A stretch of 64,000 nt of DNA, from contig JAEUHD010000086.1 of assembly GCA_016793645.1 (NCBI GenBank), positions 31,397 to 95,396 of the forward strand, given 5' to 3'. Below, piece by piece: positions 35,393-52,497 of the stretch. The stretch comes from Verrucomicrobiales bacterium. GTDB taxonomy: Bacteria; Verrucomicrobiota; Verrucomicrobiia; Limisphaerales; UBA9464. Numbering within the stretch: position 1 is the first letter of the stretch; every line of letters starts with the position of its first letter. A program made the translations under genes and the position numbers. The notes under the pieces were generated by a model, which was not told the DNA's origin, ran no database searches, and worked only from the letters and a program-made list of their open reading frames with translations.

Positions 35393-35466
35393 TGGAGCGG
35401 GTGAAGGGAATCGAACCCTCGTAACCAGTTTGGAAGACTGGCGCTCTACCATTGAGCTACACCCGC
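35393..35466 (-). tRNA. tRNA-Gly (anticodon UCC), CCA encoded
   Basis: The minus strand reads GCGGGTGTAGCTCAATGGTAGAGCGCCAGTCTTCCAAACTGGTTACGAGGGTTCGATTCCCTTCACCCGCTCCA. I folded the full cloverleaf by hand: 7-bp acceptor stem, GCTC/GAGC D stem, CCAGT/ACTGG anticodon stem, loop CTTCCAA and T-loop TTCGATT. Confidence 0.95.
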
Positions 35467-37057: not shown

Positions 37058-38410
37058 TCAATCATCCACCGACTGCTCGACCAGGAGCCGAAACTTCCAT
37101 CCGGTCTCGTCGTTGCCTCCCTGCGTCTGCTTCATCAGCACGCCGATCAAGCCCTCCTTGGGATCTGCAAAATACTGGGTATTGAAGTAACCGCCCCAGT
37201 CGAACGTCCCCGGGCTGCCCTCGCCCCCTTTGGCCTTCCCCTTTTCCGTGACGATTCCAAAGGCCAGTCCATACACCTTGTCGCCATTGCCCCACAGATC
37301 CACCGGAACCTGTCCGCTCAGGATCGTCTCCACGGTGGTCCGGCTGAGAATCCGCACGCCACCCAGTTCGCCGCCATTGAGGTACATTTGCAGGAACGTG
37401 GCATAATCCTTCGCCGTGCTGCAAAGCCCTGCGCCGCCGGAGAAAAAGGTCTTGGCGCCCTGGATCGGGTAGTTGGGATCGTAAAAAGTAACCGGGTACC
37501 GCACCCACTTCCCGTCGGCGGGCTTCTGAACCTGGACGAGACGGCCCGCCTTGGACTCCGGAAGGTAGAACCCCGTGTCCCTCATCCCCAGGGGACCGAA
37601 GATGTGAGTCTGCAGGAACACATCAAACGGCTGACCTGAGATCACCTCAATGAACCGGCCGAGGACGTCCAATCCCTCGCTGTAGGTGAACTTCTCCCCG
37701 GGGTGATGATGCAGCGGGAGGGCGGCGAGCTTCCGGACATTGTCGGCGAGAACCACCGGTTCCGTCGTAAACAGGTCCACAATCCCCGCCTTGGCGTAAA
37801 TCGCCTTAAAGCGGGGATCGCCATCGATCACGCCGTACCCCAGACCGGACGTATGCGTTAGGAGGTCCCGAATCGTAATCCCCCGCTTCGCAGGCTCTCC
37901 CGTCCAGGTGCCATCCACCTCATTGTACGTCTTCAACACCTGCGGACTCTTGAACTCAGGAAGGTACTTGGAAATGGGGTCATCCAGTTTGAAACGCCCC
38001 TGCTCCCAAAGCATCATGACCCCGGTCGCCGTGATGGCCTTGGACTGGGAGGCGATCCGGAAAATGTCGTCCCGGCGCAACGGACGTCCCGTATCGGCAT
38101 CCGCGGTGCCATAGGCATTGTGAAAGACGATCTTTCCCCGTCGAGCCGCGAGGGCCACCACTCCCGGGATTTGTCCCGACTGAACGGCGTCGCGACACAA
38201 TTGGTCGATGCGCGCCAACCGGTCCCGGGAGATGCCCACCTGTTGCGGGGCCCCCTCGGAAAGCGGCGGGGAATGTTTCGATGACTGCGTCTGGGCCGCC
38301 CCTGGAAGTGGGCCCAGGACAATGCAGGCAGCCGCGGCCACTCCGATCCATCGGTTCAGGGATTTCACGGAGGTAAGGCTACCGGTCCGCACCTCGGGAT
38401 TGGAATCCAT
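37058..38410 (-). CDS. exported serine hydrolase of the beta-lactamase/PBP (class C-like) family
   Basis: 450 aa from MDSNPEV with a signal/TM segment. SxxK motif IASQSKAIT and a YSEG (YxN-like) region. The remaining 260 N-terminal codons of the 710-aa track ORF are antisense to nuoB and were rejected. Confidence 0.8.
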   Translation of the reverse strand: MDSNPEVRTGSLTSVKSLNRWIGVAAAACIVLGPLPGAAQTQSSKHSPPLSEGAPQQVGISRDRLARIDQLCRDAVQSGQIPGVVALAARRGKIVFHNAYGTADADTGRPLRRDDIFRIASQSKAITATGVMMLWEQGRFKLDDPISKYLPEFKSPQVLKTYNEVDGTWTGEPAKRGITIRDLLTHTSGLGYGVIDGDPRFKAIYAKAGIVDLFTTEPVVLADNVRKLAALPLHHHPGEKFTYSEGLDVLGRFIEVISGQPFDVFLQTHIFGPLGMRDTGFYLPESKAGRLVQVQKPADGKWVRYPVTFYDPNYPIQGAKTFFSGGAGLCSTAKDYATFLQMYLNGGELGGVRILSRTTVETILSGQVPVDLWGNGDKVYGLAFGIVTEKGKAKGGEGSPGTFDWGGYFNTQYFADPKEGLIGVLMKQTQGGNDETGWKFRLLVEQSVDD

Positions 38411-38490
38411 AAAATCCAAGGGGAAACAACCCTGCCATATGGGATACGGAGCCCCGGATTGCCAGCCAGCCGACCCCATTCCACCCGACT

Positions 38491-38508
38491 TTGTGAAAAG
38501 AATCACAA
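38491..38508. promoter_or_regulatory. TTGTGAA-N4-ATCACAA palindrome: Rex-type (or CRP/FNR-family) operator upstream of nuoB
   Basis: The sequence TTGTGAAAAGAATCACAA has perfect TGTGA-N6-TCACA arms and matches 17 of 18 positions of the Rex consensus TTGTGAAnnnnTTCACAA. It lies 77 nt upstream of the nuoB ATG at 38585. Confidence 0.55.
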
Positions 38509-38584
38509 AAGCCGCTTGCGATGAAAACGGGGCGAACCCAAAGTGCCGCGACCGCTCCGATTCACGGGGCGTCGAGCGCATCCC

Positions 38585-39196
38585 ATGGCCTCCACGACAG
38601 CATCGCCCAGCCCCTCCGTTTCGACGGAAATTGGTTACAATTCCAAGATTGAGGGCGAGGTCGTCCACACCCAGTTGGACTCGGCGATCAACTGGTTTCG
38701 AAAGAACTCCCTCTGGCCCATGCCGATGGGATTGGCCTGCTGCGCCATCGAGCTGATGGCTGCCGGGGCCAGCCGGTTCGACATCTCCCGATTTGGCGCC
38801 GAGGTCATGCGATTTTCCCCCCGTCAATCCGACGTGATGATTGTTGCGGGAACGGTCACCTACAAGATGGCCCTCGCGGTACGCCGGATTTACGAGCAGA
38901 TGGCAGAGCCCAAGTGGGTCATCGCCATGGGAGCCTGCGCTTCGACGGGAGGCATGTACCGCAGCTACGCCGTCCTGCAGGGCGTGGACAACATTGTGCC
39001 GGTGGACGTGTACATCGCCGGCTGCCCGCCGCGGCCCGAGGCACTGCTCGACGCGCTGATGAAGCTGCAGGACAAGGTCAGCCGCGACCCGATCACCAAG
39101 ACCTTGAAGAAGGACGTGGCGCCGTCCGAATACGGACGCCTCGGGCTCCGGATCGGCAATCCCGCCGCCCCGGCCCCCGTGACGTCGCACTCCTGA
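38585..39196 (+). CDS. nuoB: NADH-quinone oxidoreductase subunit B
   Basis: Cluster-N2 cysteines in [18 protein letters not shown] and GCPPRPE. An alternative start exists at 38543. Confidence 0.93.
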
Positions 39197-39224
39197 ACCC
39201 GTTTACGGCAACCACCTTCCCCCT

Positions 39225-39806
39225 GTGGCCTCCCCCCAAGAACTTGCCGGCCGGATTTGCTCCCAGTTTGGCGACCTGGTGTCGTCACCCTCCGAATTTC
39301 GGGGGGAATTCGCACTGACGGTATCCGATGCCGGGCGAATCGTGGAGGTGTGCCGCTACGCCAAAGACGCCTGCGGATTCGACCTCCTGCTGGACCTGAG
39401 CACCGTGGACAACTACGGCGGGGATCCACGCTGGACCGTCGTGTACGAGCTGTATTCGGTGGGCTCGGGATGCCACCTCCGCCTGAAAACCCACGTCGGT
39501 GAGGAGCAGTCCGAGGTTCCAAGCGTTTCGACCGTCTGGCCCGCCGCCAACTGGCATGAACGCGAGGCCTACGACATGATGGGAGTTCGGTTTTCCGGGC
39601 ACCCCGACCTCCGTCGAATCCTGATGTGGGAGGGCTATCCCTATTTCCCGCTCCGAAAGGATTTCCCGCTTGCCGGCAAACCCACAGACCTTCCCGAGGT
39701 CGCGTTCACCCGGCCGGCACCGCTGGAAGGCGGCCCGTTCGTCACCGCACCCGGCGGGCGCGACTCCACCCAGCGCGAACCGCGCGCCCGCACTCCGCAA
39801 CCCTAG
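39225..39806 (+). CDS. nuoC: NADH-quinone oxidoreductase subunit C
   Basis: ANWHEREAYDMMGVRFSGHPDLRRILM signature; 193 aa. Confidence 0.92.
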   Translation: MASPQELAGRICSQFGDLVSSPSEFRGEFALTVSDAGRIVEVCRYAKDACGFDLLLDLSTVDNYGGDPRWTVVYELYSVGSGCHLRLKTHVGEEQSEVPSVSTVWPAANWHEREAYDMMGVRFSGHPDLRRILMWEGYPYFPLRKDFPLAGKPTDLPEVAFTRPAPLEGGPFVTAPGGRDSTQREPRARTPQP

Positions 39807-39812
39807 GATTCG

Positions 39813-41084
39813 ATGGCTGTCCAGGAATTGAACATCAAGGAACCCGCGGCACGTATCGCCACGGCTTCCGCCGACGAACTTCAGGACCTCCAGGGGGACC
39901 GGATGGTCGTCAACATGGGGCCGTCGCATCCCGCCACCCACGGCGTGCTGCGACTGGTGATTGAACTCGACGGCGAGACCATTACCAAGGCAGATCCGGA
40001 CATCGGCTACCTCCACCGGGGTGACGAGAAAATTGCGGAGGCGATGACCTGGAATCAGTTCATCCCGTATACCGACCGCCTGGACTACCTGGCACCGTTG
40101 GCGAACAACGTGGCCTACGCGCTGGCGGTGGAAAAGTTGCTGGGGATCGACGCCGGCATCCCGCCCCGCTGCCAGTACATTCGGGTCATCTGTTGCGAAC
40201 TGGCCCGCATCTCGGCGCACCTGCTGGGACTGGGCGCATTCGCCATGGACGTCGGCGCGATGACGGTGTTCCTGCACACCTTCACGGAACGGGAGAAGAT
40301 CTATAATCTGGCCGAGTCACTGACCGGAGCGCGCTTCACCACATCCTACACCCGCATCGGCGGGGTAACCCGCGACACGCCCGCCGGATGGATCGCGGCC
40401 GTCCGCGACTTTTGCGACGGCGTCTCGGCCCAAATTGACGAGTCGGAGAAGCTGCTCACCCGCAACCGGGTCTGGGTGGATCGCACCCGCGACATCGGGG
40501 TTATTTCCCGTGCGGACGCCATCGCCTACGGCCTGACGGGCCCCAATCTGCGCGGCAGCGGATGCGACTACGACGTCCGCAAGGCGCACCCGTATCTCTG
40601 CTACAAGGATCTGGAATTTGACGTCGCCGTGGGATCGGTCGGTGATTGCTACGACCGGTATCTCGTCCGCATGGAGGAGATGCGCCAGAGCGTTCGAATC
40701 CTCCGCCAATGCGTGGACCGCATTCCGGGCGGGGCTGACAACCCCTCGCGGGAGCCTGTCCATGTCGCGGACGGCAAGGTCTTTCTCCCCCCGAAGTCCG
40801 CCGTGTTGACCAAGATGGAGGAACTCATTCACCAGTTCATGCTGGTGACCGAGGGCCCCAATGCGCCGGCCGGAGAGGTTTACTTCGGTGCCGAAAACCC
40901 GAAGGGCGAGCTCGGCTTTTACATCAACAGCCGCGGCGGGGGCACGCCCTACCGGCTGAAGATCCGGTCCCCATCGTTTTGCAACCTGAGCATCCTGCCC
41001 GTCCTGCTGCCGGGCTGCCTCATGAGCGACGTGGTTTCGGTCCTTGGCTCCCTCGACTTCGTGATGGGCGAATGTGACCGGTGA
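39813..41084 (+). CDS. nuoD: NADH-quinone oxidoreductase subunit D
   Basis: MVVNMGPSHPATHGVLRL, YTDRLDYL and a C-terminal GECDR; 423 aa. Confidence 0.95.
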   Translation: MAVQELNIKEPAARIATASADELQDLQGDRMVVNMGPSHPATHGVLRLVIELDGETITKADPDIGYLHRGDEKIAEAMTWNQFIPYTDRLDYLAPLANNVAYALAVEKLLGIDAGIPPRCQYIRVICCELARISAHLLGLGAFAMDVGAMTVFLHTFTEREKIYNLAESLTGARFTTSYTRIGGVTRDTPAGWIAAVRDFCDGVSAQIDESEKLLTRNRVWVDRTRDIGVISRADAIAYGLTGPNLRGSGCDYDVRKAHPYLCYKDLEFDVAVGSVGDCYDRYLVRMEEMRQSVRILRQCVDRIPGGADNPSREPVHVADGKVFLPPKSAVLTKMEELIHQFMLVTEGPNAPAGEVYFGAENPKGELGFYINSRGGGTPYRLKIRSPSFCNLSILPVLLPGCLMSDVVSVLGSLDFVMGECDR

Positions 41085-41094
41085 GAATTTTCGC

Positions 41095-41589
41095 ATGAGC
41101 TTTTCCGTTCCATCCAAACTGGAGGCCGAGCTGGACGAACTGGCGACGCACTACCCGCAGAAGCGGAGCGCCTCGCTGATGTTCCTGCACGCCCTCCAGG
41201 AGCACTTCGGATTCATTTCCCGGGACGCGGTGGAGTGGACCGCCACCAAGCTCGGTCTGCAGCCGATCAACGTGTACGAACTTGTGACGTTCTACCCGAT
41301 GTTCCGGCAGGAGAAACTTGGCCGGACGCAGGTCAGGGTGTGCCGGACGTTGAGTTGCGCGCTCGCGGGGGCCTACGAGTTGCGGGACCATTTCTGCAAG
41401 AACCTGGGCCTCGACACCGCGAAGCATGGTCCCCAGACCACGCCGGACGGGAAGTTCACCGTGGAATTCGTCGAATGCCTCGCGAGCTGCGGAAGCGCGC
41501 CGGTGGTGATGGTCAACGATGATCTGCTGGAGAAGGTCACCGCCGCGGACGCGGAGAAGGTCCTGACCCGGGGGAGGGTAACGGAGTGA
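41095..41589 (+). CDS. nuoE: NADH-quinone oxidoreductase subunit E
   Basis: The 2Fe-2S ligands are in VCRTLSCALAG and ECLASCGSAPV. An alternative start at 41074 overlaps nuoD. Confidence 0.9.
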   Translation: MSFSVPSKLEAELDELATHYPQKRSASLMFLHALQEHFGFISRDAVEWTATKLGLQPINVYELVTFYPMFRQEKLGRTQVRVCRTLSCALAGAYELRDHFCKNLGLDTAKHGPQTTPDGKFTVEFVECLASCGSAPVVMVNDDLLEKVTAADAEKVLTRGRVTE

Positions 41590-41684
41590 GCGCCAATAAC
41601 TCCACCGAACACCGGATCCATCGGGGTTTCCCTGCTGGAGTCGTTTCCGGAAATTCGTTCCCCGCGAATGGGGACCGGAAGGAT

Positions 41685-41758
41685 TGGCTGCCCGACATGG
41701 ATTTGAACCATGACAAGCAGATTCAGAGACTGCTGTGCTACCGTTACACCATCGGGCA
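41685..41758 (-). tRNA. tRNA-Gln (anticodon CUG), CCA encoded, antisense to the nuo cluster
   Basis: The minus strand reads TGCCCGATGGTGTAACGGTAGCACAGCAGTCTCTGAATCTGCTTGTCATGGTTCAAATCCATGTCGGGCAGCCA. Perfect 7-bp acceptor stem with U1-A72 and G73 (bacterial Gln identity features). D stem GTGT/GCAC, anticodon loop CTCTGAA, T arm CATGG/TTCAAAT/CCATG. There is one U31-U39 mismatch. Confidence 0.9.
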
Positions 41759-41810
41759 GGCCGGAAGCGCGGCAAAGCTAGTCAGGTGAACCGTCGAGTC
41801 AAGCACTGCC

Positions 41811-43214
41811 ATGCCTGAAGAGTTTAAACTCATCACAAAAAACCTCGATCAACCCGGTTTCACACCGGACATCGGGTGCTACCAGCGCCACGGCGGATAC
41901 GAGGCGCTGCGCAAGGCGTTGTCCACCGCCGCGCGTGATCTCCCGGACGGAAAGAAGCAGTCGCCGCAGGAGGTCATCCGCGATGAGGTGCTGAAATCCG
42001 GTCTCCGGGGGCGGGGCGGCGCCGGATTTTCCGCCGGACTCAAGTGGAGTTTCGTGGACCGCCGCAGCGGCAAACCGATTTACCTGATCTGCAACGCCGA
42101 CGAATCGGAACCGGGCACGTTCAAGGACCGTCAGATTCTCCATCGCGATCCGCACCAACTGATCGAGGGGATGATCATCTCCTGCTGGGCCAATGACGTT
42201 AAGCTCGCCTACATCTACATCCGCGGCGAGATGCCCATCGCCGCCCGGCGCCTGAACCAGGCCCTCGCCGAGGCACGCGCGGCGGGATTTCTCGGGAAGA
42301 ACATTCTCGGCACCGGCTACGACCTGGAAATCCACGTCCACCGGGGCGCCGGCGCCTACATCTGCGGCGAGGAAACGGGCCTGATCGAATCGCTCGAGGG
42401 AAAGCGTCCGTATCCTCGCATCAAGCCCCCGTACTTCCCCGCGGTGCTCGGGCTCTACCTCTGCCCGACGATCGTCAACAACGTCGAGACGCTGTGTCAC
42501 GTCCGCCACATCGTGACCCTGGGCGGCGCGGAGTACGCCAAGCTGGGCACGCCCAACAACACCGGCACCCGCATCGTGAGCCTGAGCGGCGATGTTCAAC
42601 GGCCCGGCTACTACGAGATCGAAGTGGGCAAGGTGACGCTGGGTGAGCTGATCCAGCATCCCAACTTCGGCGGCGGATTGCGCCCCGGACGCCAACTCAA
42701 GGCGATCATCCCCGGCGGTTCCTCATCCAAGGTCCTGAAGGCCGGCGAGAAATTCCAACTCAAGCGCAAGGGTCCCGATGGGCAGATGACCTCGGTGGAA
42801 ACCGCCCTGCTCGACCTTCCCTACGACTTCGATTCGCTTCAGCAGGCCGGGACGATGTCCGGTTCCAGCGCGATCATCGTCCTCGACGATTCCCGCAGCA
42901 TGGTGGCCACCCTGGGCAACCTGTCCGAGTTTTACGCCCATGAGAGCTGCGGCCAATGCACCCCGTGCCGCGAAGGGGCGCTGTGGATGGAAAAGGCCCT
43001 GCACCGCCTCAACCATGGCGAGGGACGCAAGTCGGACGCCGACTACCTGCTCCATATCGCCCAAAACATCCAGGGCCGCACGATCTGCGCCTTCGGCGAA
43101 GCCGCCTCGTGGCCGGTGCTCAGTTTCGTGAAGAAGTTCCGGGACGAATTCGAATCCAAGGGTGCGGCGGACGAATCCGCGCGCGCCGCGAACCCCGCCC
43201 GACCCCAACACTGA
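41811..43214 (+). CDS. nuoF: NADH-quinone oxidoreductase subunit F
   Basis: GRGGAGFSAGLKWSF FMN/NADH site and ESCGQCTPCREG 4Fe-4S motif; 467 aa. Confidence 0.95.
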   Translation: MPEEFKLITKNLDQPGFTPDIGCYQRHGGYEALRKALSTAARDLPDGKKQSPQEVIRDEVLKSGLRGRGGAGFSAGLKWSFVDRRSGKPIYLICNADESEPGTFKDRQILHRDPHQLIEGMIISCWANDVKLAYIYIRGEMPIAARRLNQALAEARAAGFLGKNILGTGYDLEIHVHRGAGAYICGEETGLIESLEGKRPYPRIKPPYFPAVLGLYLCPTIVNNVETLCHVRHIVTLGGAEYAKLGTPNNTGTRIVSLSGDVQRPGYYEIEVGKVTLGELIQHPNFGGGLRPGRQLKAIIPGGSSSKVLKAGEKFQLKRKGPDGQMTSVETALLDLPYDFDSLQQAGTMSGSSAIIVLDDSRSMVATLGNLSEFYAHESCGQCTPCREGALWMEKALHRLNHGEGRKSDADYLLHIAQNIQGRTICAFGEAASWPVLSFVKKFRDEFESKGAADESARAANPARPQH

Positions 43215-43220
43215 TTTTCC

Positions 43221-44948
43221 ATGTCGAACGTCGCGACAACCGCCCCGGCACCCGCCGCGCCGCCCCCGGTGGAGAAGCTCAAGATCAAGGTGGACGGACG
43301 GGAGATCGAGGTCCCGAAGTTGATGCCCGACTGGCAGGGACGTCTCCAGCCGACCACCATGCTCCAGGCCTGCCAGATCGCCGGAGCCGAGGTGCCGCAC
43401 TACTGCTACCACCCGAAACTTCCCGTCGCCGGCAACTGCCGCATGTGCCTGGTTGAGTTTGGCACCCCGATGATGGGACCCGACCGCAAGCCGGTGCTCA
43501 ATCCGGATGGCACTCCCAAGATTGCCAAGTCGGTCCTTCCCTACGAGCCCGGCACCCCGCGAGGGGCGATCGCCTGCGCCACGCCCATCTCCCCCGGAAT
43601 GGAGATTTATCCCGGATCCGCTGCCACCCAGCAAATGCGCGAGGCGGTGCTGGAGTCGCTCCTGATCAATCACCCTCTGGACTGCCCCATTTGTGACCAG
43701 GCCGGGGAATGCAAACTGCAGGAATATTCGGTCGAACACGGTCAGGCCAACAGCCGCTTCGTGGAGACCAAGGTCCACAAGCCGAAGGCGGTGGATCTCG
43801 GTCCGAGGATCGTCCTCGACGATGAACGCTGCATCCTGTGCACGCGGTGCATCCGCTTCTCCCGCGATATTGCCGGGGATGATGCCCTCGGCATCGTGAA
43901 CCGGGGCTCCTACAACACCATCGCTGCATGGAAGGAGGGCGCCTTCGACAACAACTACACCCTCAACACCGTCGACCTCTGTCCGGTCGGCGCGCTGACG
44001 TCGCGGGATTTCCGCTTCAAAATGCGGGTGTGGTTCCTGAAGGAGACCCGCAGCGTCTGCACCTCCTGTTCAACCGGATGCAACATCACCATCGGATCCC
44101 GGGAGGACGTGATCCATCGCTACGAACCCCGCGACAATGATGCAGTCAACGCGGCGTGGATGTGCGATGCCGGACGCCTGAACTACAAGTGGGTGGGACG
44201 CCCCGACCGGCTCAAGGAGGTCCGCCGCCGCAATGCCGACGGAACTTCGGACCGGATTCCCTGGGAGACCGCAATCCGGGAAATCACCGCCCGACTTTCG
44301 AACGCCGTCTCCGGCAGCGTTGCCGTCGTGGCCAGCGCCCGACAGACGACCGAAGAACTCCATTTGCTGAAGAAGCTGGCCAACCGCTTCGGGGCGATCA
44401 CGGACTCCGTTCCCCGTACGGGGGAGGCGGACCGCCTCCTCGTCAGCGCGGATCGAAATCCGAACAGCAACGGTGCGCGCCTCACCGGCATCGCCTACAC
44501 CGAGATGGGGATCCGTCTTCCGGAAATTGCCGAAGGCATCCGGTCGGGATCCATCCGCACGCTGGTGGTCTTCGGCGAAGACGTCACCCAACACGGGATC
44601 GGAGCGGATCTGCTCGCCCGGCTCGAAACCCTCGTCGTGAGCGACATCCTTCCGAATCCCACCACGGCGGCGGCACACTACCTCCTGCCGGGATGCGCCC
44701 ATGCCGAGAAGCGCGGGACCTACATCAATGGAAAAGGACGCCTTCAGCGCTTCCTGAAGGCCGTCGAACCGCACGGCGACGCGCGCCCCGAATGGGAGTT
44801 TCTCCGGGAACTCGTCACCGCGGTCACCGCCCAGGCCGTCCCGGCAACCCTCGAGGGACTTTTCAATGAAATGTCGGATGGTATCCCTGCCTTCGGGGGC
44901 GTCCGATGGGCCGGGATCGGTGATCTCGGGGTCAACGTGACGATCTGA
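43221..44948 (+). CDS. nuoG: NADH-quinone oxidoreductase subunit G (short form)
   Basis: CYHPKLPVAGNCRMCLVE 2Fe-2S motif, HPLDCPICDQAGECKLQ and CILCTRCIRF clusters. The 575-aa length and the Thermus-type insertion after CRMCLVE are noted. Confidence 0.92.
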   Translation: MSNVATTAPAPAAPPPVEKLKIKVDGREIEVPKLMPDWQGRLQPTTMLQACQIAGAEVPHYCYHPKLPVAGNCRMCLVEFGTPMMGPDRKPVLNPDGTPKIAKSVLPYEPGTPRGAIACATPISPGMEIYPGSAATQQMREAVLESLLINHPLDCPICDQAGECKLQEYSVEHGQANSRFVETKVHKPKAVDLGPRIVLDDERCILCTRCIRFSRDIAGDDALGIVNRGSYNTIAAWKEGAFDNNYTLNTVDLCPVGALTSRDFRFKMRVWFLKETRSVCTSCSTGCNITIGSREDVIHRYEPRDNDAVNAAWMCDAGRLNYKWVGRPDRLKEVRRRNADGTSDRIPWETAIREITARLSNAVSGSVAVVASARQTTEELHLLKKLANRFGAITDSVPRTGEADRLLVSADRNPNSNGARLTGIAYTEMGIRLPEIAEGIRSGSIRTLVVFGEDVTQHGIGADLLARLETLVVSDILPNPTTAAAHYLLPGCAHAEKRGTYINGKGRLQRFLKAVEPHGDARPEWEFLRELVTAVTAQAVPATLEGLFNEMSDGIPAFGGVRWAGIGDLGVNVTI

Positions 44949-44957
44949 GGACGAACC

Positions 44958-46052
44958 ATGGACGCGATCTACTATCTCGATCCGACGACCCAGTTCGTCC
45001 TGTTCAGCATCGTCAAGATCGTGGTGGCGTTTGTCATCACGCTGACGTTCGTGGCGTATGCCGTGCTCGCCGAGCGGAAGATTTCCGCCTGGATCCAGGA
45101 CCGCGTCGGACCAAACCGCGCCACGCCGTTTTTCGCGCAGTATCTTCCGGTGATCGGTCCCGCCTTGGTGCGCTTGGGCATTTTCCAGCCCATGGCGGAT
45201 GGCCTGAAGTTCCTGCTCAAGGAGGACTTCACCCCGGCGTACGTCCGGAAGGTGTACTTCTGGCTGGCGCCCGCGCTGACCGCCATCCCGGCCTTCATGA
45301 CCATCGCGGTCATCCCGTTCGGATCGACCCTCGGAAACCCCAACAACCCGATGGTGATCGCCGACCTGAACGTCGGCATCCTTTACTCCTTCGGCATCGT
45401 GTCACTGGGAGTCTATGGGATTGTGCTCGCGGGCTACGCCTCGAACTCCAAGTATCCGTTCCTCGGGGGCATCCGCTCCTCGGCCCAGATGATCTCCTAC
45501 GAGATCGCCATGGGCATGAGCGTCGTTGCGGTGTTCATGGTGATTGGAGATCTCAACCTCTCCAAGGTGGTCGAATACCAGGGTGCGAACATCCTGCACT
45601 GGATGGCCTGGAAGCAGCCCCTCGCCTTCTTCATTTTCCTGGTGTCCGCCTTCGCCGAGACGAACCGCCTGCCGTTTGACCTCCCCGAATCCGAATCCGA
45701 ACTCGTGGGCGGCTACCACACCGAATACAGTTCGATGAAGTTCGCCCTCTTCTTCCTCGGTGAGTACGCGAACATGATCGCCGCCTCGGCCATGATGGTG
45801 ACGCTGTTCTTCGGAGGATGGGCCTACCCGTGGGGCGGCGGTGCGGCACAGGGCTTCCTCGGGGGCGTGGGCCACATCGTGTGCTTCCTCGTAAAGATGC
45901 TGGTCCTGATGGGCGTGTTCATCTGGGTTCGCTGGATGTTCCCCCGCTTCCGCTACGACCAATTGATGGACCTCGGATGGCGCCGATTCATCCCGCTGGC
46001 CCTCGTCAACATTCTCGTCACCGCCCTCGTGCTGGCCGCCCTGAACGACTGA
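44958..46052 (+). CDS. nuoH: NADH-quinone oxidoreductase subunit H
   Basis: ERKISAWIQDRVGPNR signature and 8 TM helices. Confidence 0.95.
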   Translation: MDAIYYLDPTTQFVLFSIVKIVVAFVITLTFVAYAVLAERKISAWIQDRVGPNRATPFFAQYLPVIGPALVRLGIFQPMADGLKFLLKEDFTPAYVRKVYFWLAPALTAIPAFMTIAVIPFGSTLGNPNNPMVIADLNVGILYSFGIVSLGVYGIVLAGYASNSKYPFLGGIRSSAQMISYEIAMGMSVVAVFMVIGDLNLSKVVEYQGANILHWMAWKQPLAFFIFLVSAFAETNRLPFDLPESESELVGGYHTEYSSMKFALFFLGEYANMIAASAMMVTLFFGGWAYPWGGGAAQGFLGGVGHIVCFLVKMLVLMGVFIWVRWMFPRFRYDQLMDLGWRRFIPLALVNILVTALVLAALND

Positions 46053-46068
46053 ACGGAAACGGACCCCC

Positions 46069-46635
46069 ATGACCAAGGTTGTCGAACGCAAACCCCTCAG
46101 TCTCCTGGAGCGCACCTACCTGCCGTCCATCGTCGGCGGCCTTCAGGTCACTTGGAAACACTTCGCAAAATCCGTCCTGAAGGGGAAACCCCTCACGATG
46201 GAATACCCGGAGGAGAAGTGGGTTGTCCCCGAGGGCTATCGTGGCGCGCCCTACCTCGTGAAGGATCAGGAGGGCGACACCAAGTGCGTCAGTTGCCAGC
46301 TCTGCGAATTCATCTGCCCTCCCAAGGCGATCCGGATCACCCCGCCCGGCCCTGATGGCGCTCCGGCAGACCGTGCCAACGCCGAGAAGATGCCGAAGGA
46401 ATTCGAGATCAACATGCTCCGGTGCATTTTCTGCGGTCTCTGCCAGGAAGTGTGCCCGGAGGAGGCAATCTTCCTGCAACGGGACTACTCCCTGACCGGC
46501 ACCAGCCGGGAAGCGATGGTGTACAACAAGCAGAGGCTTCTGGAACTCGGGGGCATCCATGGCGGCATCCAGAAATGGAAGCACAAGCTCGAGGAAGCCC
46601 GCGAACAGGAGGCGTTCCCGGTCCGCGAAGCCTGA
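46069..46635 (+). CDS. nuoI: NADH-quinone oxidoreductase subunit I
   Basis: Two ferredoxin motifs, [12 protein letters not shown] and [12 protein letters not shown]. Confidence 0.95.
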
Positions 46636-46647
46636 TCCCGACCTCCC

Positions 46648-47160
46648 ATGTCCGAACTGCTTCCCTCAGCCCTCTTCTACGCCTTCGCCGGACTCGCGCT
46701 GGTGTTTGGATTCCTCTGCGTGGCGAATCCGCTCAGCCGGAATCCGGTGACGAGCGCGATGTTCCTTGTCCTGACCATTGTCTCGCTGGCCGGGCTGTAC
46801 ATTCTTCTTCACGCCTTCTTCCTCGCCGCGATCCAGATTCTCGTCTACGCGGGCGCGGTCATGGTGCTCTTCCTGTTCGTCATCATGCTGCTCAATCTCG
46901 AGGAGGAGGAGCGGCGGAAGATCCGCGGCATCACCCTCGGCCTCGGCGCACTGTCGGTGGCGGTGATCGCCGGCATCCTGATCCGGGCGGTGGTCGCCGC
47001 CCGGCCATCCGCGGGCACCACGCCCTTGGTGGAGGGCGGCATCCGGAACCTGGGCCATACCCTCTTCACCCTCTATCTCCTGCCCTTCGAGGCGATGTCC
47101 CTCCTGCTGCTGGTCGGCATGGTGGGCGTCATCCTGCTCAGCAAGAAGGATCTGAAATGA
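46648..47160 (+). CDS. nuoJ: NADH-quinone oxidoreductase subunit J
   Basis: 170-aa polytopic protein in the conserved operon position, with an [19 protein letters not shown] motif. Confidence 0.9.
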
Positions 47161-47462
47161 TCGTTGGCCTCCACCACTACCTCGTCGTCAGCGCGCTCCT
47201 GTTCAGCCTCGGGCTGTTCGGCGTCCTCGCCCGCCGCAACCTGCTGGTGATCTACATGAGCCTCGAACTCATGCTGAACGCCGCCAATCTCGCCCTGGTC
47301 GCCTTCTCCCGGTACAACGCCAATCTCAAGGGACAGGTGATGGTCTTCTTCATCATTACCGTCGCCGCCGCCGAGGTGGCGGTCGGGCTCGCCCTCATCG
47401 TCGCCTTGTACCGCCGCCGTGGCACCGCGCACGTCGAGGATCTCAACAGCCTGCGCCTGTGA
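47157..47462 (+). CDS. nuoK: NADH-quinone oxidoreductase subunit K
   Basis: 101 aa, three TM helices, [15 protein letters not shown]. The ATG overlaps the nuoJ TGA. It is hidden at the 3' end of the 346-aa track ORF 46422..47462. Confidence 0.92.
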
Positions 47463-47515
47463 CTGACGCTCCCCTTCAACCCCGCCCGGACACGGTCGCC
47501 GCCGACTGACGCCCC

Positions 47516-49462
47516 ATGGAACCGACCCATCTCCCCGCAACAAATTTTCAGGACCTCGCCTGGGCAATCCTGCTGCTGCCCCTGGTTTCGGCCCTCGCGA
47601 TCACCCTCGGCCTGCGCCGCAACCGGGAATTGACCACCACACTCAGTTTGTCCGCGGTGGGCATCGGATTCGGTCTTAGCGTCTGGCTGTTCTTCCTGTA
47701 CGGCGTTTCCGGGGAACGCCTGGCCGCTACGCCCCTGTCCTGGATGTCCGTCGGCTCACTGTCCGCGCATCTCGGACTTACGGTGGACCCGCTGTCGACG
47801 TTGATGCTCATGGTCGTCACCGGGGTCTCCTTCCTCGTCCACGTCTACAGCACGGGGTACATGGAGGACGACCCGGAGTACCCCCGGTACTTTGCCAGCC
47901 TCGGCTTCTTCACCTTCTCGATGCTGGGCATCGTCCTTTCGGACAATTTCGTCCAGACATTCATTTTCTGGGAACTGGTCGGCGTCTCCAGCTACCTGCT
48001 CGTCGGCTTCTGGTACGAGAAACCTGCGGCAGCGGATGCCGCCAAAAAGGCCTTTCTGACAAACCGCATCGGTGACTTCGGCTTCCTGCTCGGAATCCTC
48101 ATCGTCTGGGCTGCCACCGGCACGGTCTCCTTCGACGCCATGGCCGCCAAGTTGAAGGCGGAACCCGGCATCCTCGGCGCCGCAGCCTCCCTCGCGGGTG
48201 TCCTCATCTTCCTCGGCGCCGTCGGCAAGAGCGCCCAACTGCCGCTCCACGTCTGGCTTCCGGACGCCATGGAGGGCCCCACGCCGGTGTCCGCACTGAT
48301 CCACGCAGCGACAATGGTCGCCGCCGGCGTGTACATGTTGTGCCGGGTTTACTTCCTGCTCGACCTTCCCGCCGCCTGGCCGGCGGCCCTGTCCTTCCTT
48401 GGCAGCATCTCGGCGCTCGACGTCATCGCCTGGACCGGTGCGCTGACATCCCTGGTCGCGGGCGTCATTGCGATCCAACAGGACGACATCAAGCGCATCC
48501 TTGCCTATTCCACGCTCTCACAGCTCGGCTACATGGTGATGGCCGTGGGATGCGGCGGTCCCGATGCCGCGATGTTTCATCTCACTACCCACGCCTGCTT
48601 CAAGGCGCTGCTGTTCCTGGGGGCCGGCGCCGTGATCTACGCCTGTCACCACGAACAGAACATCTGGAAAATGGGCGGCCTGGCGAAGCGGATGCCGGTC
48701 ACCTTCTGGACCTTCCTCTTGGCGACGGCAGCCCTGTGTGGTCTTCCGGTTCTCAGCAGCGGCTTCTACAGCAAGGACGCCATCTTCGCCGCCGCGCTGG
48801 CGTCGAATCGGCCGGTCCTGTTCGGCATCGGAGTTTTGGTGGTCGGACTGACCACGCTCTACATGTCCCGACTGGTGATCATCGCGTTCCTCGGGGAATC
48901 CCGCAGCGAGGCCGCGTCCCATGCGGCCGATCCCGGGCGCAACATGACCCTCCCGCTCCTGATCCTCGCGGTTCCGTCGGTCTCCCTCGGTTGGCTTCCC
49001 GTGGGCGCCTATTTCAAGTCAGCCATTTTCCCAGGAGCGGTCACCCACTCCGCGGAGGGCTTTTCGGACGTCTTCTTCGAACCGTTCAATCATTCGCCCC
49101 TCGGCGCCTTCCTCGGCTTCGGTCTGATGGCCTTTGGTCTGTCCGTCGCCTTCGCCACCTATTGGGGTGCTGCGATGGATCCCATGCCCGGACACCTGCC
49201 CCGGTTGTCCCGCGCGCTGCGCAACCGCCTCTACTTCGATGAGATTTACGCGGCAACCCTGATCCCCCTTCACGACGCCGTCGCCGCGCTCGCAGACTGG
49301 GTGGACCGCTGGATTGTCCAAGGGTTGTTTGTCCGCGGAATTTCAGGCGGCATGGATTTGTTCGGACGAGCACTCCGATTGGTCCAGACCGGCAATCTCC
49401 AGACGTACGCGTTCCTGTTCGTGGCCGGGGTCGCCCTGGTCGTCCTCCTGGCCCTGAAATAA
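47516..49462 (+). CDS. nuoL: NADH-quinone oxidoreductase subunit L
   Basis: 648-aa antiporter-like subunit with WELVGVSSYLLVGFW and GKSAQLPLHVWLPDAMEGPTPVSALIHAATMV. Confidence 0.95.
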   Translation: MEPTHLPATNFQDLAWAILLLPLVSALAITLGLRRNRELTTTLSLSAVGIGFGLSVWLFFLYGVSGERLAATPLSWMSVGSLSAHLGLTVDPLSTLMLMVVTGVSFLVHVYSTGYMEDDPEYPRYFASLGFFTFSMLGIVLSDNFVQTFIFWELVGVSSYLLVGFWYEKPAAADAAKKAFLTNRIGDFGFLLGILIVWAATGTVSFDAMAAKLKAEPGILGAAASLAGVLIFLGAVGKSAQLPLHVWLPDAMEGPTPVSALIHAATMVAAGVYMLCRVYFLLDLPAAWPAALSFLGSISALDVIAWTGALTSLVAGVIAIQQDDIKRILAYSTLSQLGYMVMAVGCGGPDAAMFHLTTHACFKALLFLGAGAVIYACHHEQNIWKMGGLAKRMPVTFWTFLLATAALCGLPVLSSGFYSKDAIFAAALASNRPVLFGIGVLVVGLTTLYMSRLVIIAFLGESRSEAASHAADPGRNMTLPLLILAVPSVSLGWLPVGAYFKSAIFPGAVTHSAEGFSDVFFEPFNHSPLGAFLGFGLMAFGLSVAFATYWGAAMDPMPGHLPRLSRALRNRLYFDEIYAATLIPLHDAVAALADWVDRWIVQGLFVRGISGGMDLFGRALRLVQTGNLQTYAFLFVAGVALVVLLALK

Positions 49463-49467
49463 TCGCC

Positions 49468-50994
49468 ATGTCCACGCTTTCCCTGCTCCCCCTGCTCCCC
49501 ATTCTGGGAGCCTTGGTCATCCTGTTGGTTCCCGCGGCGTACAGTGCTGCCTGGCGTGGCATCGCCCTTGGCATGACGGGGGTCAACCTCCTCGTGGCCA
49601 CCACGATCTTCTTCACCTTTCACGTCGGGATCGGCGGATACCAGATGGTCGCGAACCATGCGTGGGTCCCGGCGATCGGATTGAACTACCACGTCGGTGT
49701 GGACGGTCTCAGCGTCGGACTCCTGCTCGTCGGCGCTCTGGTCTCGTTCGCCGCCACTTGGGTTTCCTCCGAGATCAAATCCCACGAACGCTTCTTTTAC
49801 GTCCTCCTCCTCGTGATCTCCGGTGGGGTGCTCGGATCCCTGATCTCGCTGGACCTGTTCTTCCTCTACTTCTTCAACGAACTGGCGCTGGTGCCGACCT
49901 TCCTCATGATCGGCATCTGGGGCCGCGGAGCGGATCGCAGCGCGATCGCCTTTCAGATCACCCTGTATCTCTCCCTCGGTGCCTTGGTGGCCTTGGTGGG
50001 ATTGATCGGGCTCTATGCCTTGTCGGGTGCCAATACGCTGGACGTCGTCACGCTCGCCGCCTGGCTGAAGACGCATCCGCTCCCGGCCTCCACTCAAACC
50101 GTTCTCTTCGGGCTCCTGCTGTTCGGGTTCGGGACTCTGGTGGGCCTGTGGCCATTTCATAGCTGGGCACCCGCCGGCTACGCGGCCGCCCCGACGGCCA
50201 CGGCGATGATGCACGCCGGCATCCTCAAGAAGGTGGGAGCCTTCGCCCTTCTCCGCGCCGCCTTCCCGCTGCTTCCGGAGGGGGTCGCCCAATGGACCCG
50301 GATCCTCGCGATCCTCTGCCTCGGCAACATTCTGTATTGTGGCTGGGTCGCCATGCGTCAACGGAACCTGAACCTGCTGTTCGGAAACTCCAGCCTGGCC
50401 CACATGGGCTTTGTGTTCCTGGGTCTGGCCAGTGTCAGTTTGATCGGCATCACCGGAGCCGTGCTGATCATGGTGGCGCACGCGCTCCTGGCCTCCCTGG
50501 AATACGCCCTGAGCGGCCACATCTACCGCGAGACCGGTCATCTGGAACTCGACCGCATGGGCGGACTGATGCGTCGGATGCCTTTCATCGGGGCGGCCTT
50601 GGTGGCGGCGATGCTGGCGGGCTGCGGAGTCCCGGGGTTTGCCAGTTTCGCCGGCGAATTGGCGGTGATGTTCGGCGTCTGGCCCACCCTCCCCGCATTC
50701 GTGGTGGCGGCGGCGTTTGGTGGCCTTCTGATCGGTGGCATCTACATGCTGCGCGGCATCCGCCAGGTCGCCCACGGCCCCGATGTCGGCACGACGGGCG
50801 GCGACGTCCCCTGCTGGACCGGACGCATCCCCTACCTCGTCCTTCTGGTACCTCTCATTCTTTTTGGCGTGGCTCCCTACGTCCTGGTGGATCGGATTCG
50901 CCCGAGCGCCGCGCTCGTCGTGGAGCGTGCGCTTCTCAAACCCTCCCCTGCGGCCCCCGCAGCCCCGGCCGTCGCCGCTGCACCGGCCCACTGA
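49468..50994 (+). CDS. nuoM: NADH-quinone oxidoreductase subunit M
   Basis: 508-aa antiporter-like subunit with WPFHSWAPAGYAAAPTATAMMHAGILKK. Confidence 0.93.
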   Translation: MSTLSLLPLLPILGALVILLVPAAYSAAWRGIALGMTGVNLLVATTIFFTFHVGIGGYQMVANHAWVPAIGLNYHVGVDGLSVGLLLVGALVSFAATWVSSEIKSHERFFYVLLLVISGGVLGSLISLDLFFLYFFNELALVPTFLMIGIWGRGADRSAIAFQITLYLSLGALVALVGLIGLYALSGANTLDVVTLAAWLKTHPLPASTQTVLFGLLLFGFGTLVGLWPFHSWAPAGYAAAPTATAMMHAGILKKVGAFALLRAAFPLLPEGVAQWTRILAILCLGNILYCGWVAMRQRNLNLLFGNSSLAHMGFVFLGLASVSLIGITGAVLIMVAHALLASLEYALSGHIYRETGHLELDRMGGLMRRMPFIGAALVAAMLAGCGVPGFASFAGELAVMFGVWPTLPAFVVAAAFGGLLIGGIYMLRGIRQVAHGPDVGTTGGDVPCWTGRIPYLVLLVPLILFGVAPYVLVDRIRPSAALVVERALLKPSPAAPAAPAVAAAPAH

Positions 50995-51009
50995 TTCCCG
51001 CATCCCGCG

Positions 51010-52497
51010 ATGAACTCCTCATTGCTCGCCATCGAATTTCTGGTCGTGGTCCTCGGCCTGGGCATCCTGCTCGCCGACCTTTGGATCCCATCCGGTGCCC
51101 GCCGCGGCCTCGCCTATGCGGCCGCGACCGGACTGCTTCTGGTTCTGACCTTGCACGGTGGAGCGCTCGCCCCCGGCGACGACACCGCATTCGGGGGCAT
51201 GTTCCTTGTGGATGCCCTCGCCAACTACTTCAAGACGCTCTTCATCGTCGCGACCATCGCGGTGCTGCTGATCTCGTCCGGATATGCCGACCGGCTCGAC
51301 GGCTATGGTGAATATGTCGCGCTCACCCTCTTTGCCCTCGCCGGAATGCTGCTCGCGGCGTCCGCCAATGACTTCATCCTGATGTTCGTCGCACTGGAGC
51401 TGGTGACCGTGACGTTCTACGTCCTGGTCAGCTTCCAACGACGCCGGCAGTCCTCCCTCGAGGCCGGCGTGAAGTATCTCATTTTCGGGGCGCTTGCGGC
51501 CGCCTTCATGGTGTATGGGATCGCGCTCATCTTTGGCTCCGCCAACACCACCAACTTCTACGAGATCGCCTCCCGTCAGGCGGAACTCGGGAAATCCCCG
51601 GTGTTTGTCATCGGACTCCTCCTCACCCTGGTCGGGTTGGGCTTCAAGATCTCCGCATTCCCCTTCCAGATGTGGACTCCGGACGTCTATCAGGGCGCTC
51701 CCGTCCCAACGACAGCCTTCCTGGCCACCGGTTCCAAGGCCGCCGGGTTCGTCCTGCTGCTCCGGCTCGCCTACAGTGTCGTTCCGGAAGTCATGGCCCG
51801 CTGGAGCCACCTACTCCTGGGCTTCGCCATGGCGACCATGCTGTATGGGAGCTTTGCCGCCCTCGCCCAGCGCAGCGTCAAACGCCTCATGGGATACAGC
51901 TCCATCGCCAACGCCGGTTATCTTCTGCTGGGAATTGGCGCAACCAACGTCACCGGTTCGACCGCCATCCTTTATTTCCTTTCCGGATACGTCTTTACCA
52001 CCCTGGCAGCATTCGCCGTCATCTCCCGGGTCACGGTCCAGGACGACAATGACGACATCAGCGTCTTTGCCGGTCTGGGGAACCGCTCGCCCCTGCTGGC
52101 GGCCGCAATGACGCTGGCGCTGGTCAGCCTCGCCGGCATCCCGCCGCTGGCGGGCTTTTTTGGCAAATTCTACCTCTTCAAGGCAGCCCTCCTCCAGGTG
52201 CCCACGAGCCCGCTGTTCCTGGTCGCGGTTCTCATCGCCTGCGTGTCCGTGGTCCTGTCCCTCTACTACTACTTCAACATCATCCGGGTGATGTACTGGC
52301 CCGCCCAGGACGCTGTGGACCGGCCGGTGACCGTCCCGATGGCGGTCGGGATCAGCCTGGCCGCCTGTCTGGCGGGAATCCTGGTGGTCGGCATCTTCCC
52401 CAGCGGCGTCATCGGTCTCGCCCATGAGGCGGTCGCCGGACTCGGCACGCCGGCTCCGGAGATGCACGTCCAGGCGCACCACGCCGCGGCGCACTGA
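51010..52497 (+). CDS. nuoN: NADH-quinone oxidoreductase subunit N
   Basis: 495-aa antiporter-like subunit with FKISAFPFQMWTPDVYQGAPVPTTAFLATGSK. Confidence 0.93.
   Translation: MNSSLLAIEFLVVVLGLGILLADLWIPSGARRGLAYAAATGLLLVLTLHGGALAPGDDTAFGGMFLVDALANYFKTLFIVATIAVLLISSGYADRLDGYGEYVALTLFALAGMLLAASANDFILMFVALELVTVTFYVLVSFQRRRQSSLEAGVKYLIFGALAAAFMVYGIALIFGSANTTNFYEIASRQAELGKSPVFVIGLLLTLVGLGFKISAFPFQMWTPDVYQGAPVPTTAFLATGSKAAGFVLLLRLAYSVVPEVMARWSHLLLGFAMATMLYGSFAALAQRSVKRLMGYSSIANAGYLLLGIGATNVTGSTAILYFLSGYVFTTLAAFAVISRVTVQDDNDDISVFAGLGNRSPLLAAAMTLALVSLAGIPPLAGFFGKFYLFKAALLQVPTSPLFLVAVLIACVSVVLSLYYYFNIIRVMYWPAQDAVDRPVTVPMAVGISLAACLAGILVVGIFPSGVIGLAHEAVAGLGTPAPEMHVQAHHAAAH

Follow-up and report, generated by a model that had tools for sequence, protein, structure and literature searches.

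How does a transfer RNA (tRNA) gene come to lie, facing backwards, inside an operon for respiratory complex I, and how are the genes on its far side transcribed? The question is raised by a stretch of 64,000 nucleotides (nt) of contig JAEUHD010000086.1 from a Verrucomicrobiales bacterium, hereafter the window. In it the nuo cluster, which encodes complex I on the plus strand, is parted between nuoE and nuoF by a tRNA-Gln(CUG) gene on the minus strand (table 1). The comparisons below point to a functional tRNA with a promoter of its own and to an ancient insertion; they give an even chance that the nuo transcript simply reads through it. The tRNA itself is ordinary; its position is unusual.

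Is this a genuine tRNA gene? ARAGORN calls two tRNAs in the window, one of them the tRNA-Gln(CUG) at 41685–41758 on the minus strand, and its match to the Rfam family RF00005, with 60.3 bits (E = 5.6e-11), is well above the gathering score of 29. The first-pass annotation, which had described a canonical 74-nt tRNA-Gln(CUG) with U1–A72 and G73 at this place, was therefore correct. The letters are 5'-UGCCCGA UG GUGU AACGGUA GCAC A GCAGU CUCUGAA UCUGC UUGU CAUGG UUCAAAU CCAUG UCGGGCA G CCA, with stems of 7/4/5/5 base pairs, a score beyond the threshold of the tRNA model and a CCA end encoded in the DNA. The first pair, U1–A72, is a hallmark of tRNA-Gln that is read by GlnRS and GatCAB, and it is found in all 29 distinct tRNA sequences. 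The anticodon loop, C-U-C-U-G-A-A, provides U33, CUG at positions 34–36 and a purine at 37; neither U33 nor C34-U35-G36 varies in any of 42 sequences. The other invariant columns of these 42 loci include G18 and G19 of the D-loop, the TTC that starts the T-loop (followed, after one variable base, by A-A-T) and the CCA. The sole blemish of the window's tRNA is a U31·U39 mismatch at the base of the anticodon stem, which recurs in six other distinct tRNA sequences among the relatives. A permissive Rfam scan of both strands at 41300–42100 returned no other RNA family.

Does the gene evolve as a working tRNA would? In a gap-free alignment of the 42 orthologous tRNAs, 98.9% of the stem cells are paired, and 9 of the 21 stem pairs show changes on both sides. 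These compensatory changes lie in the acceptor, anticodon and T stems: CCCGA/UCGGG, for example, becomes CCGGA/UCCGG or CCGAA/UUCGG, while CAUGG/CCAUG becomes CUAGG/CCUAG. None of 500 shuffles matched this level of covariation, and slid controls paired at 31–42%. We conclude that, as judged by its pattern of change, the tRNA-Gln is a functional gene under purifying selection and not a pseudogene. Its expression, processing and charging with glutamine have indirect support in this compensatory evolution and in the conservation of the promoter described below.

Could it nevertheless be a pseudogene, a tRNA-like fragment, the scar of an integration event or a chance match? tRNA genes are common targets of integration, and in some relatives variable insertions do lie on the 3' side of this tRNA. 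However, the cloverleaf is of full length and scores well, three of its stems carry compensatory changes, U1–A72, G18 G19, TTC and CCA are invariant over the 42 loci, and a conserved promoter is present. Furthermore, the window holds no second copy of the tRNA 3' half, with up to three mismatches allowed, and there is no integrase among the neighbours. Full length, covariation and the lack of a 3'-end repeat effectively refute all of these explanations, which we consider improbable in the extreme. The check with tRNA predictors that had been proposed, in case the gene should score as a pseudogene, thus yields a tRNA-Gln(CUG) call from ARAGORN, with pseudogene status ruled out by covariation and the Rfam score.

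One notable position of the tRNA is variable. The discriminator base 73 (41688 in the window) is G or A among close relatives, while U1–A72 is invariant. G73 is an identity element for GlnRS in Escherichia coli, and its variation hints that the clade may make Gln-tRNA by the GluRS/GatCAB route.

If the gene is functional, what drives it? The 52-nt spacer between the tRNA and nuoF carries CTTGACT-N16-TAGCTT on the minus strand (41802–41775). The pattern TTGAC[TC]-N16-TAnnnT recurs in 38 of 42 genome loci; of the 52 nuo-linked metagenome loci with sufficient sequence, 46 have it. The 16-nt spacing between the −35 and −10 boxes is constant, and the motif is placed 39–47 nt upstream of the mature tRNA 5' end. 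For a sequence logo, 90 distinct sequences were anchored on TTGAC, which was found 36–50 nt upstream of the tRNA in all but one of 91 loci tested. The neighbours of TTGAC, which the anchor leaves free, are also conserved: a C precedes it in 88 of 90 sequences and the sixth base is T in 85 of 90. Information reaches 1.6–2.0 bits at CTTGACT and at the T, the A and the final T of the −10 box; elsewhere in the spacer most columns hold about 0.1 bit, and an A-rich patch is present.

Which of the two genes does this motif serve? In relatives where 100–600 nt (once 2085 nt) have been inserted before nuoF, it keeps to the tRNA. Since it travels with the tRNA across these insertions, and not with nuoF, we conclude that it is the promoter of the tRNA. 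By its conservation it would be a strong sigma-70-type promoter, presumably active, and transcription of the tRNA-Gln is an inference that it strongly supports. From general promoter geometry, transcription should start within the G+C-rich stretch that separates the −10 box from the mature tRNA (table 1), and the same stretch should supply a short 5' leader, some 10 nt long, for RNase P to remove. In E. coli a G+C-rich discriminator after the −10 box is typical of stringently controlled stable-RNA promoters; the run that follows the box in the window, TGCCGCGC, resembles such a discriminator.

This promoter stands almost alone in its surroundings. It is the only match to TTGAC[ATC]-N15-17-TAnnnT on either strand of the 64-kb window, and this genome seems to have very few sigma-70 promoters near the consensus. 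A consensus scanner misses it, because its −10 box fits TATAAT at only three of six positions; the evidence for it is conservation, not consensus score. The nearby tRNA-Gly(UCC) gene (35393–35466) lacks such a promoter, and the other nearby tRNA genes have no equally good match.

How old is the arrangement? With NuoF as the entry point, 80 genomic loci were retrieved and searched for tRNAs. A minus-strand tRNA-Gln(CUG) stands just upstream of nuoF in 41 of 41 informative genomes, whose NuoF is 71–88% identical to that of the window (loci L001–L044 minus the short loci L017, L021, L031 and L042, plus L067). The five loci among close relatives that lack the tRNA offer no more than 130 nt of DNA upstream of nuoF. 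By their record names the 41 belong to Verrucomicrobiota, Limisphaerales, Pedosphaera or subdivision 3. The tRNA is absent from all 34 loci of Chthoniobacterales, Udaeobacter and Methylacidiphilales (NuoF identity 62–66%). At all the loci tblastn places nuoC-nuoD-nuoE upstream and nuoG-nuoH downstream.

Metagenome contigs, scanned with a degenerate pattern of the tRNA, returned 120 loci. Fifty-five of them carry nuoE and/or nuoF, and every one of the 55 has the same order and the opposite tRNA orientation; one of these, L085, branches deeply, its NuoF identity being only 63%. The other 65 tRNA-Gln(CUG) loci are without nuo genes and have a G+C content of 0.37–0.69, different stems and different flanks. 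We considered whether they might reveal a second tRNA-Gln(CUG) copy in the same lineage and rejected this: their varied G+C and stems assign them to many other, unrelated lineages, so that they do not settle the copy number of the clade.

When 106 NuoF sequences are placed in a neighbour-joining tree, all 68 tRNA-bearing loci fall on one side of a single bipartition and all 34 tRNA-less ones on the other. The simplest history, on this tree, would be that the tRNA entered once, in the ancestor of the Limisphaerales/Pedosphaera-type Verrucomicrobia, and was neither lost nor moved thereafter. The comparison with relatives that had been suggested as a means of dating the insertion thus places it early: the arrangement, as far as the sampled loci tell, is ancient and clade-wide, not a recent insertion in this genome. 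The layout also provides a clean single-insertion synteny marker for this group of Verrucomicrobia. Two relatives carry another minus-strand tRNA near the cluster, a tRNA-Cys(GCA) (L013 2490–2564; L019 2530–2604) that lies directly upstream of nuoB, divergent from it, and adjoins a minus-strand gene for a multihaem cytochrome c. It lies outside the nuo cluster and was rejected as a second embedded tRNA.

What does the junction itself look like? The gap from nuoE to nuoF spans 41590–41810, exactly 221 nt. Between nuoC and nuoN the remaining junctions lie in the range of −11 to +16 nt, except nuoK–nuoL at 53 nt, and these lengths bear out the claim of the first-pass annotation that the gap is the only sizeable one in a tight plus-strand cluster. 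The relatives are often tighter still. The distance from the nuoE stop to the tRNA ranges from −29 to about 1400 nt among them (95 nt in the window), and in about a third the stop lies 1–8 nt from the CCA end of the tRNA (in the genomes about 13 of 41 loci, in the metagenomes 12 of 50); a distance of about 2 nt is found in many lineages. On the other side, the spacer from tRNA to nuoF has a hard minimum of about 42–45 nt, which leaves just room enough for the promoter, and a mode of 48–53 nt. In many lineages the −35 box is 1–15 nt from the nuoF ATG, a start codon that is aligned at residue 1 in nearly all relatives. Compact loci therefore hold about 125 nt between nuoE and nuoF, all of it tRNA and tRNA promoter. 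The compact junction is probably the ancestral state, and would then have been so compact that head-on overlap with nuo transcription was hard to avoid.

Do the two transcription units end or begin within this gap? A scan of 39000–44000 detected no intrinsic terminator within the gap, whichever strand was read. On neither strand does the 95-nt spacer have a folding advantage over shuffled sequence (z = +0.26 and −0.27), and it has no terminator-like site, nor do the relatives share a conserved minus-strand terminator, that is, a hairpin with a T-run, after the tRNA. The first-pass annotation had proposed a search for promoters of both the tRNA and nuoF; the former was found, as described above, and the latter was not. 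In none of 42 loci do the 450 nt before nuoF contain a plus-strand promoter match, though the search has low power, since the same rule finds none for nuoB. Inspection by eye for leaderless or back-to-back nuoF promoter arrangements gave nothing convincing. Since the consensus rule finds no promoter for nuoB or for any other gene in the window, the missing match at nuoF is weak evidence.

With neither a terminator nor a recognisable plus-strand promoter between nuoE and nuoF, we infer read-through. In the compact interval a polymerase that transcribes nuoF would have to start within or upstream of nuoE or the tRNA gene, and it would then meet the tRNA promoter head-on. Likewise, the compact loci have no room for a terminator, so that tRNA precursors would have to extend somewhat antisense into nuoE. 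The first-pass annotation had named two outcomes, a break into nuoB–E and nuoF–N units or antisense interference. The anatomy of the junction, with no terminator, a nuoE stop that abuts the tRNA in many relatives, an abutting −35 box and no plus-strand promoter match, leans towards read-through with head-on overlap.

What arrangement of transcripts would this give? We put at even the chance that nuo transcription reads head-on through an active tRNA unit, much as in a noncontiguous operon, and that the head-on overlap is a tolerated by-product. The tRNA-Gln(CUG) would be an ordinary housekeeping gene, a small transcription unit that was inserted once between nuoE and nuoF in the ancestor of the clade and has been kept since. 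Its promoter next to nuoF, CTTGACT-N16-TAGCTT, would drive transcription leftwards, and the usual tRNA-processing enzymes would trim the precursor to the 74-nt tRNA. The genes nuoF–N would be expressed mainly by polymerases that arrive from nuoB–E and cross the tRNA gene head-on to the tRNA unit, while the tRNA precursors would reach slightly into the 3' end of nuoE, as antisense RNA. The tRNA would now be trapped, since relocation would damage either an essential tRNA or the nuo cluster; the conflict would be tolerated and would not be a purpose-built regulator.

Several considerations weigh against this reading. Promoter activity, read-through and overlap are all deduced from sequence. Within nuoE or the tRNA gene there could be a promoter that departs from the consensus or uses an alternative sigma factor. 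Many relatives carry 100–2000 nt inserted on either side of the tRNA; tight packing is thus not required, and some lineages could have gained a promoter for nuoF. A strong promoter directed head-on into an essential operon of about 14 kb should carry a cost, so that pure neutrality is slightly uncomfortable. Finally, the perfect retention at the level of an order would also be expected if the arrangement were useful, which makes 'by-product' a choice of parsimony.

Might the operon instead be split, the tRNA marking a true boundary? The nuoB–E transcript would then end there, and nuoF–N would be expressed from a non-consensus promoter of their own, placed in the 3' end of nuoE, in the tRNA gene or in the longer spacers, with little head-on crossing. 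A genome that hardly uses consensus promoters makes a missed one mean little, and the junction is not strictly compacted: many relatives have 100–600 nt (once 2085) between the tRNA promoter and nuoF, and others have extra small open reading frames (ORFs) between nuoE and the tRNA. Moreover, the tRNA promoter, when it fires, would presumably act as a roadblock and so favour a separate promoter for nuoF. On the other hand, in the compact loci, with only about 125 nt available, such a promoter must overlap coding or tRNA sequence, yet the variability of third codon positions, flat at 0.61–0.84, shows neither a drop towards the 3' end of nuoE nor a conserved element embedded there. No plus-strand promoter-like site appeared in the 42 loci and no intrinsic terminator follows nuoE. 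Were the promoter to lie within nuoE, the nuoF messenger RNA (mRNA) would still cross the tRNA gene in antisense. We regard a split operon as possible, if somewhat doubtful.

Could the layout, rather than being tolerated, be a selected regulatory device? A tRNA promoter under growth-rate or stringent control would then be kept head-on to the nuo genes to tune their expression, either through collision or occlusion of polymerases or because RNase III cuts the sense and antisense RNAs where they overlap. This would tie complex I synthesis, or the nuoB–E to nuoF–N ratio, to translational demand, and in the other direction strong nuo transcription would lower the output of tRNA-Gln. The absence of losses or relocations over an order-level clade would fit such a device, as would a promoter exceptionally close to consensus for this genome, set directly against the nuoF start and followed by a G+C-rich run of the kind known from stringent promoters of E. 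coli. In Staphylococcus aureus, noncontiguous operons are known to show mutual repression (PMC11034616), and the same has been suggested for Dickeya dadantii (PMC9239193). However, retention is equally expected of an essential tRNA trapped between essential genes; indeed, read-through, a split operon and regulation would all predict perfect retention alike. The spacers drift freely, from 45 to 2085 nt between tRNA promoter and nuoF and from 1 to about 1400 nt between nuoE and tRNA, which argues against a regulator that depends on geometry, and the outgroups run complex I without an embedded tRNA. We think such a device unlikely. Its fullest form, in which the tRNA unit would be a selected, growth-rate-sensitive roadblock or antisense element, a stable-RNA noncontiguous operon that has coupled complex I since the origin of the Limisphaerales/Pedosphaera group, seems to us a little less likely again.

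Is there a precedent for either layout? Noncontiguous operons were reportedly described by Saenz-Lahoya et al. in PNAS in 2019. The resemblance is that functionally linked genes, here nuoB–E and nuoF–N on the plus strand, are split by one gene of the opposite strand, here the tRNA on the minus strand. Were the nuo genes transcribed as one, the RNA of the embedded gene would be fully overlapped and mutual interference would be set up. The case here differs in that the gene on the opposite strand encodes a stable RNA and has a promoter predicted to be very strong, and in that the arrangement is conserved over an order-level clade, in the operon of complex I. Whereas a noncontiguous operon is defined by co-transcription across the embedded gene, which is a matter for transcript data, the likeness here is one of gene arrangement. 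In published descriptions, the genes of such an operon are split by an opposite-strand gene and their expression is mutually repressed (PMC11034616; also PMC9239193); the papers themselves state that these operons cannot be predicted computationally. In the S. aureus atlas, 8 of 22 operons include a gene for a peptide of fewer than 50 residues, and in seven of these eight it is the peptide gene that lies on the opposite strand (PMC11034616). tRNA is not mentioned in that atlas, and in the Dickeya paper (PMC9239193) it occurs in the reference list only. According to the first-pass annotation, an opposite-strand tRNA inside a complex I operon is not known to have been described, and a full-text literature search, of incomplete coverage, likewise found no report of any tRNA inside a nuo cluster.

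What might polymerases do when they meet at such a junction? In the window only the tRNA promoter has been identified, and that by conservation; a nuo promoter upstream of nuoB is not recognisable by the consensus rule. One model of interference between convergent promoters is reportedly that of phage 186 pR/pL, due to Callen and Shearwin. As in that model, a strong promoter would face polymerases coming from a presumably weaker upstream promoter, and collision, occlusion and 'sitting-duck' interference would be expected; here the overlap would be short, about 100–200 base pairs.

Two further comparisons concern embedded tRNA genes. In the thrU-tyrU-glyT-thrT-tufB operon of E. coli, tRNA genes are co-transcribed with a protein gene. 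As here, tRNA genes are embedded in a protein-coding transcription unit, but those tRNAs are on the mRNA strand and are cut out of it, whereas the tRNA-Gln has the opposite strand and a promoter of its own. In vertebrate mitochondrial DNA a light-strand tRNA-Gln lies between ND1 and ND2, in a genome known for mirror tRNAs and for the tRNA punctuation model. There too an opposite-strand tRNA-Gln separates genes of complex I, and the mRNA strand carries the tRNA complement. However, ND1 and ND2 correspond to nuoH and nuoN, so that the flanking genes are others, and the two arrangements have separate ancestries; the analogy is a loose one. In the window the plus-strand complement of the tRNA-Gln gave no tRNA-like hit (ARAGORN; Rfam at E ≤ 1), and the plus-strand fold is only marginally better than that of shuffles (z = −1.3).

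What would follow from each reading? If nuo transcription crosses the tRNA, the locus would be a natural example, stable in evolution, of polymerases that run head-on within an operon, and it would extend the idea of the noncontiguous operon to tRNA genes. If the operon is split instead, the complex I genes would be expressible from two units, broken within the NADH-oxidising module between nuoE and nuoF. The consequences are modest under either reading.

Table 1. Features of the nuo cluster and of the nuoE–nuoF junction (window coordinates).
Feature	Position	Strand	Basis or remark
nuoB-C-D-E-[tRNA]-F-G-H-I-J-K-L-M-N cluster	38543–52497	plus	Pfam assignments, junction lengths
nuoE (thioredoxin-like 2Fe-2S subunit)	41074–41589	plus	PF01257, E = 2.1e-43
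Spacer from nuoE stop to tRNA 3' end	41590–41684	both	95 nt; tRNA 3' trailer (minus), untranslated nuo RNA (plus)
tRNA-Gln(CUG) gene	41685–41758	minus	74 nt; encoded CCA at 41685–41687; ARAGORN and Rfam RF00005
G+C-rich stretch TGCCGCGCTTCCGGCC	41759–41774	minus	between −10 box and mature tRNA 5' end
−10 hexamer TAGCTT (TAnnnT class)	41775–41780	minus	16 nt downstream of −35 box
−35 hexamer TTGACT (AGTCAA on plus)	41797–41802	minus	conservation; 8 nt before nuoF ATG (41811)
nuoF (FMN- and NADH-binding 51-kDa subunit)	41811–43214	plus	PF01512 and PF10589

Where does the cluster begin? The upstream unit had been named nuoBCDE, and this holds: nuoB lies within 38543–39196 on the plus strand, where a PF01058 match and the motifs CCAIEL and GCPP identify it, and its true start is probably near 38582. 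It is masked by an over-extended minus-strand ORF of 710 residues (37058–39190). Only the C-terminal portion of this ORF encodes a protein of the beta-lactamase family, whose signal peptide begins near 38410; the remainder overlaps nuoB. No nuoA lies upstream of nuoB (38400–38600 in the window; 2565–2770 in L013), and nuoA was not sought elsewhere; nuoB being the first gene, nuoA must be elsewhere or diverged. An exact-protein look-up of the window's NuoF returned no record.

Does the −35 box cost nuoF its Shine–Dalgarno sequence? None is recognisable in the 25 nt before the start codon of any of the 13 nuo genes. Since no nuo gene here has a clear Shine–Dalgarno sequence, nuoF is not special, and we rejected the idea that the −35 box has displaced one. 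Translation initiation in this lineage seems largely to proceed without it.

Replication was considered as another cause of the layout. The plus-strand GC skew is negative in all 4-kb bins of the window, at −0.04 to −0.10, regardless of gene direction. This suggests that the plus strand may be lagging throughout, with the 14-kb nuo cluster head-on to replication and the tRNA co-directional with the fork. Among the tRNA-bearing relatives, however, the skew is positive in 30 and negative in 11; with so inconsistent a sign, replication orientation gives no general explanation, and it was rejected as the cause.

The nuo cluster, judging from the relatives, is a recurrent insertion site. Some lineages have 570–1400 nt between nuoE and the tRNA, with small plus-strand ORFs. 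Such ORFs are inserted between nuoD and nuoE and between nuoE and the tRNA (L006 1848–4163; L028 5135–5867; also L022, L029 and L030); they include one of 199 residues without a Pfam match and another with weak, sub-cut-off hits to the JAB domain and DUF4329. One sub-lineage carries short tandem heptad repeats on both flanks of the tRNA (L024 2424–2449; L012 5426–5457; also L011, L016, L018, L027, L032 and L033), of which the window's gap has none. The repeats are (TCACGTT)n just before the nuoF ATG and (AAATCGT)n or (GCCTTCA)n between nuoE and the tRNA; L024 also carries inverted 8-mer arrays, CGCAGAGG and CTCTGCGT.

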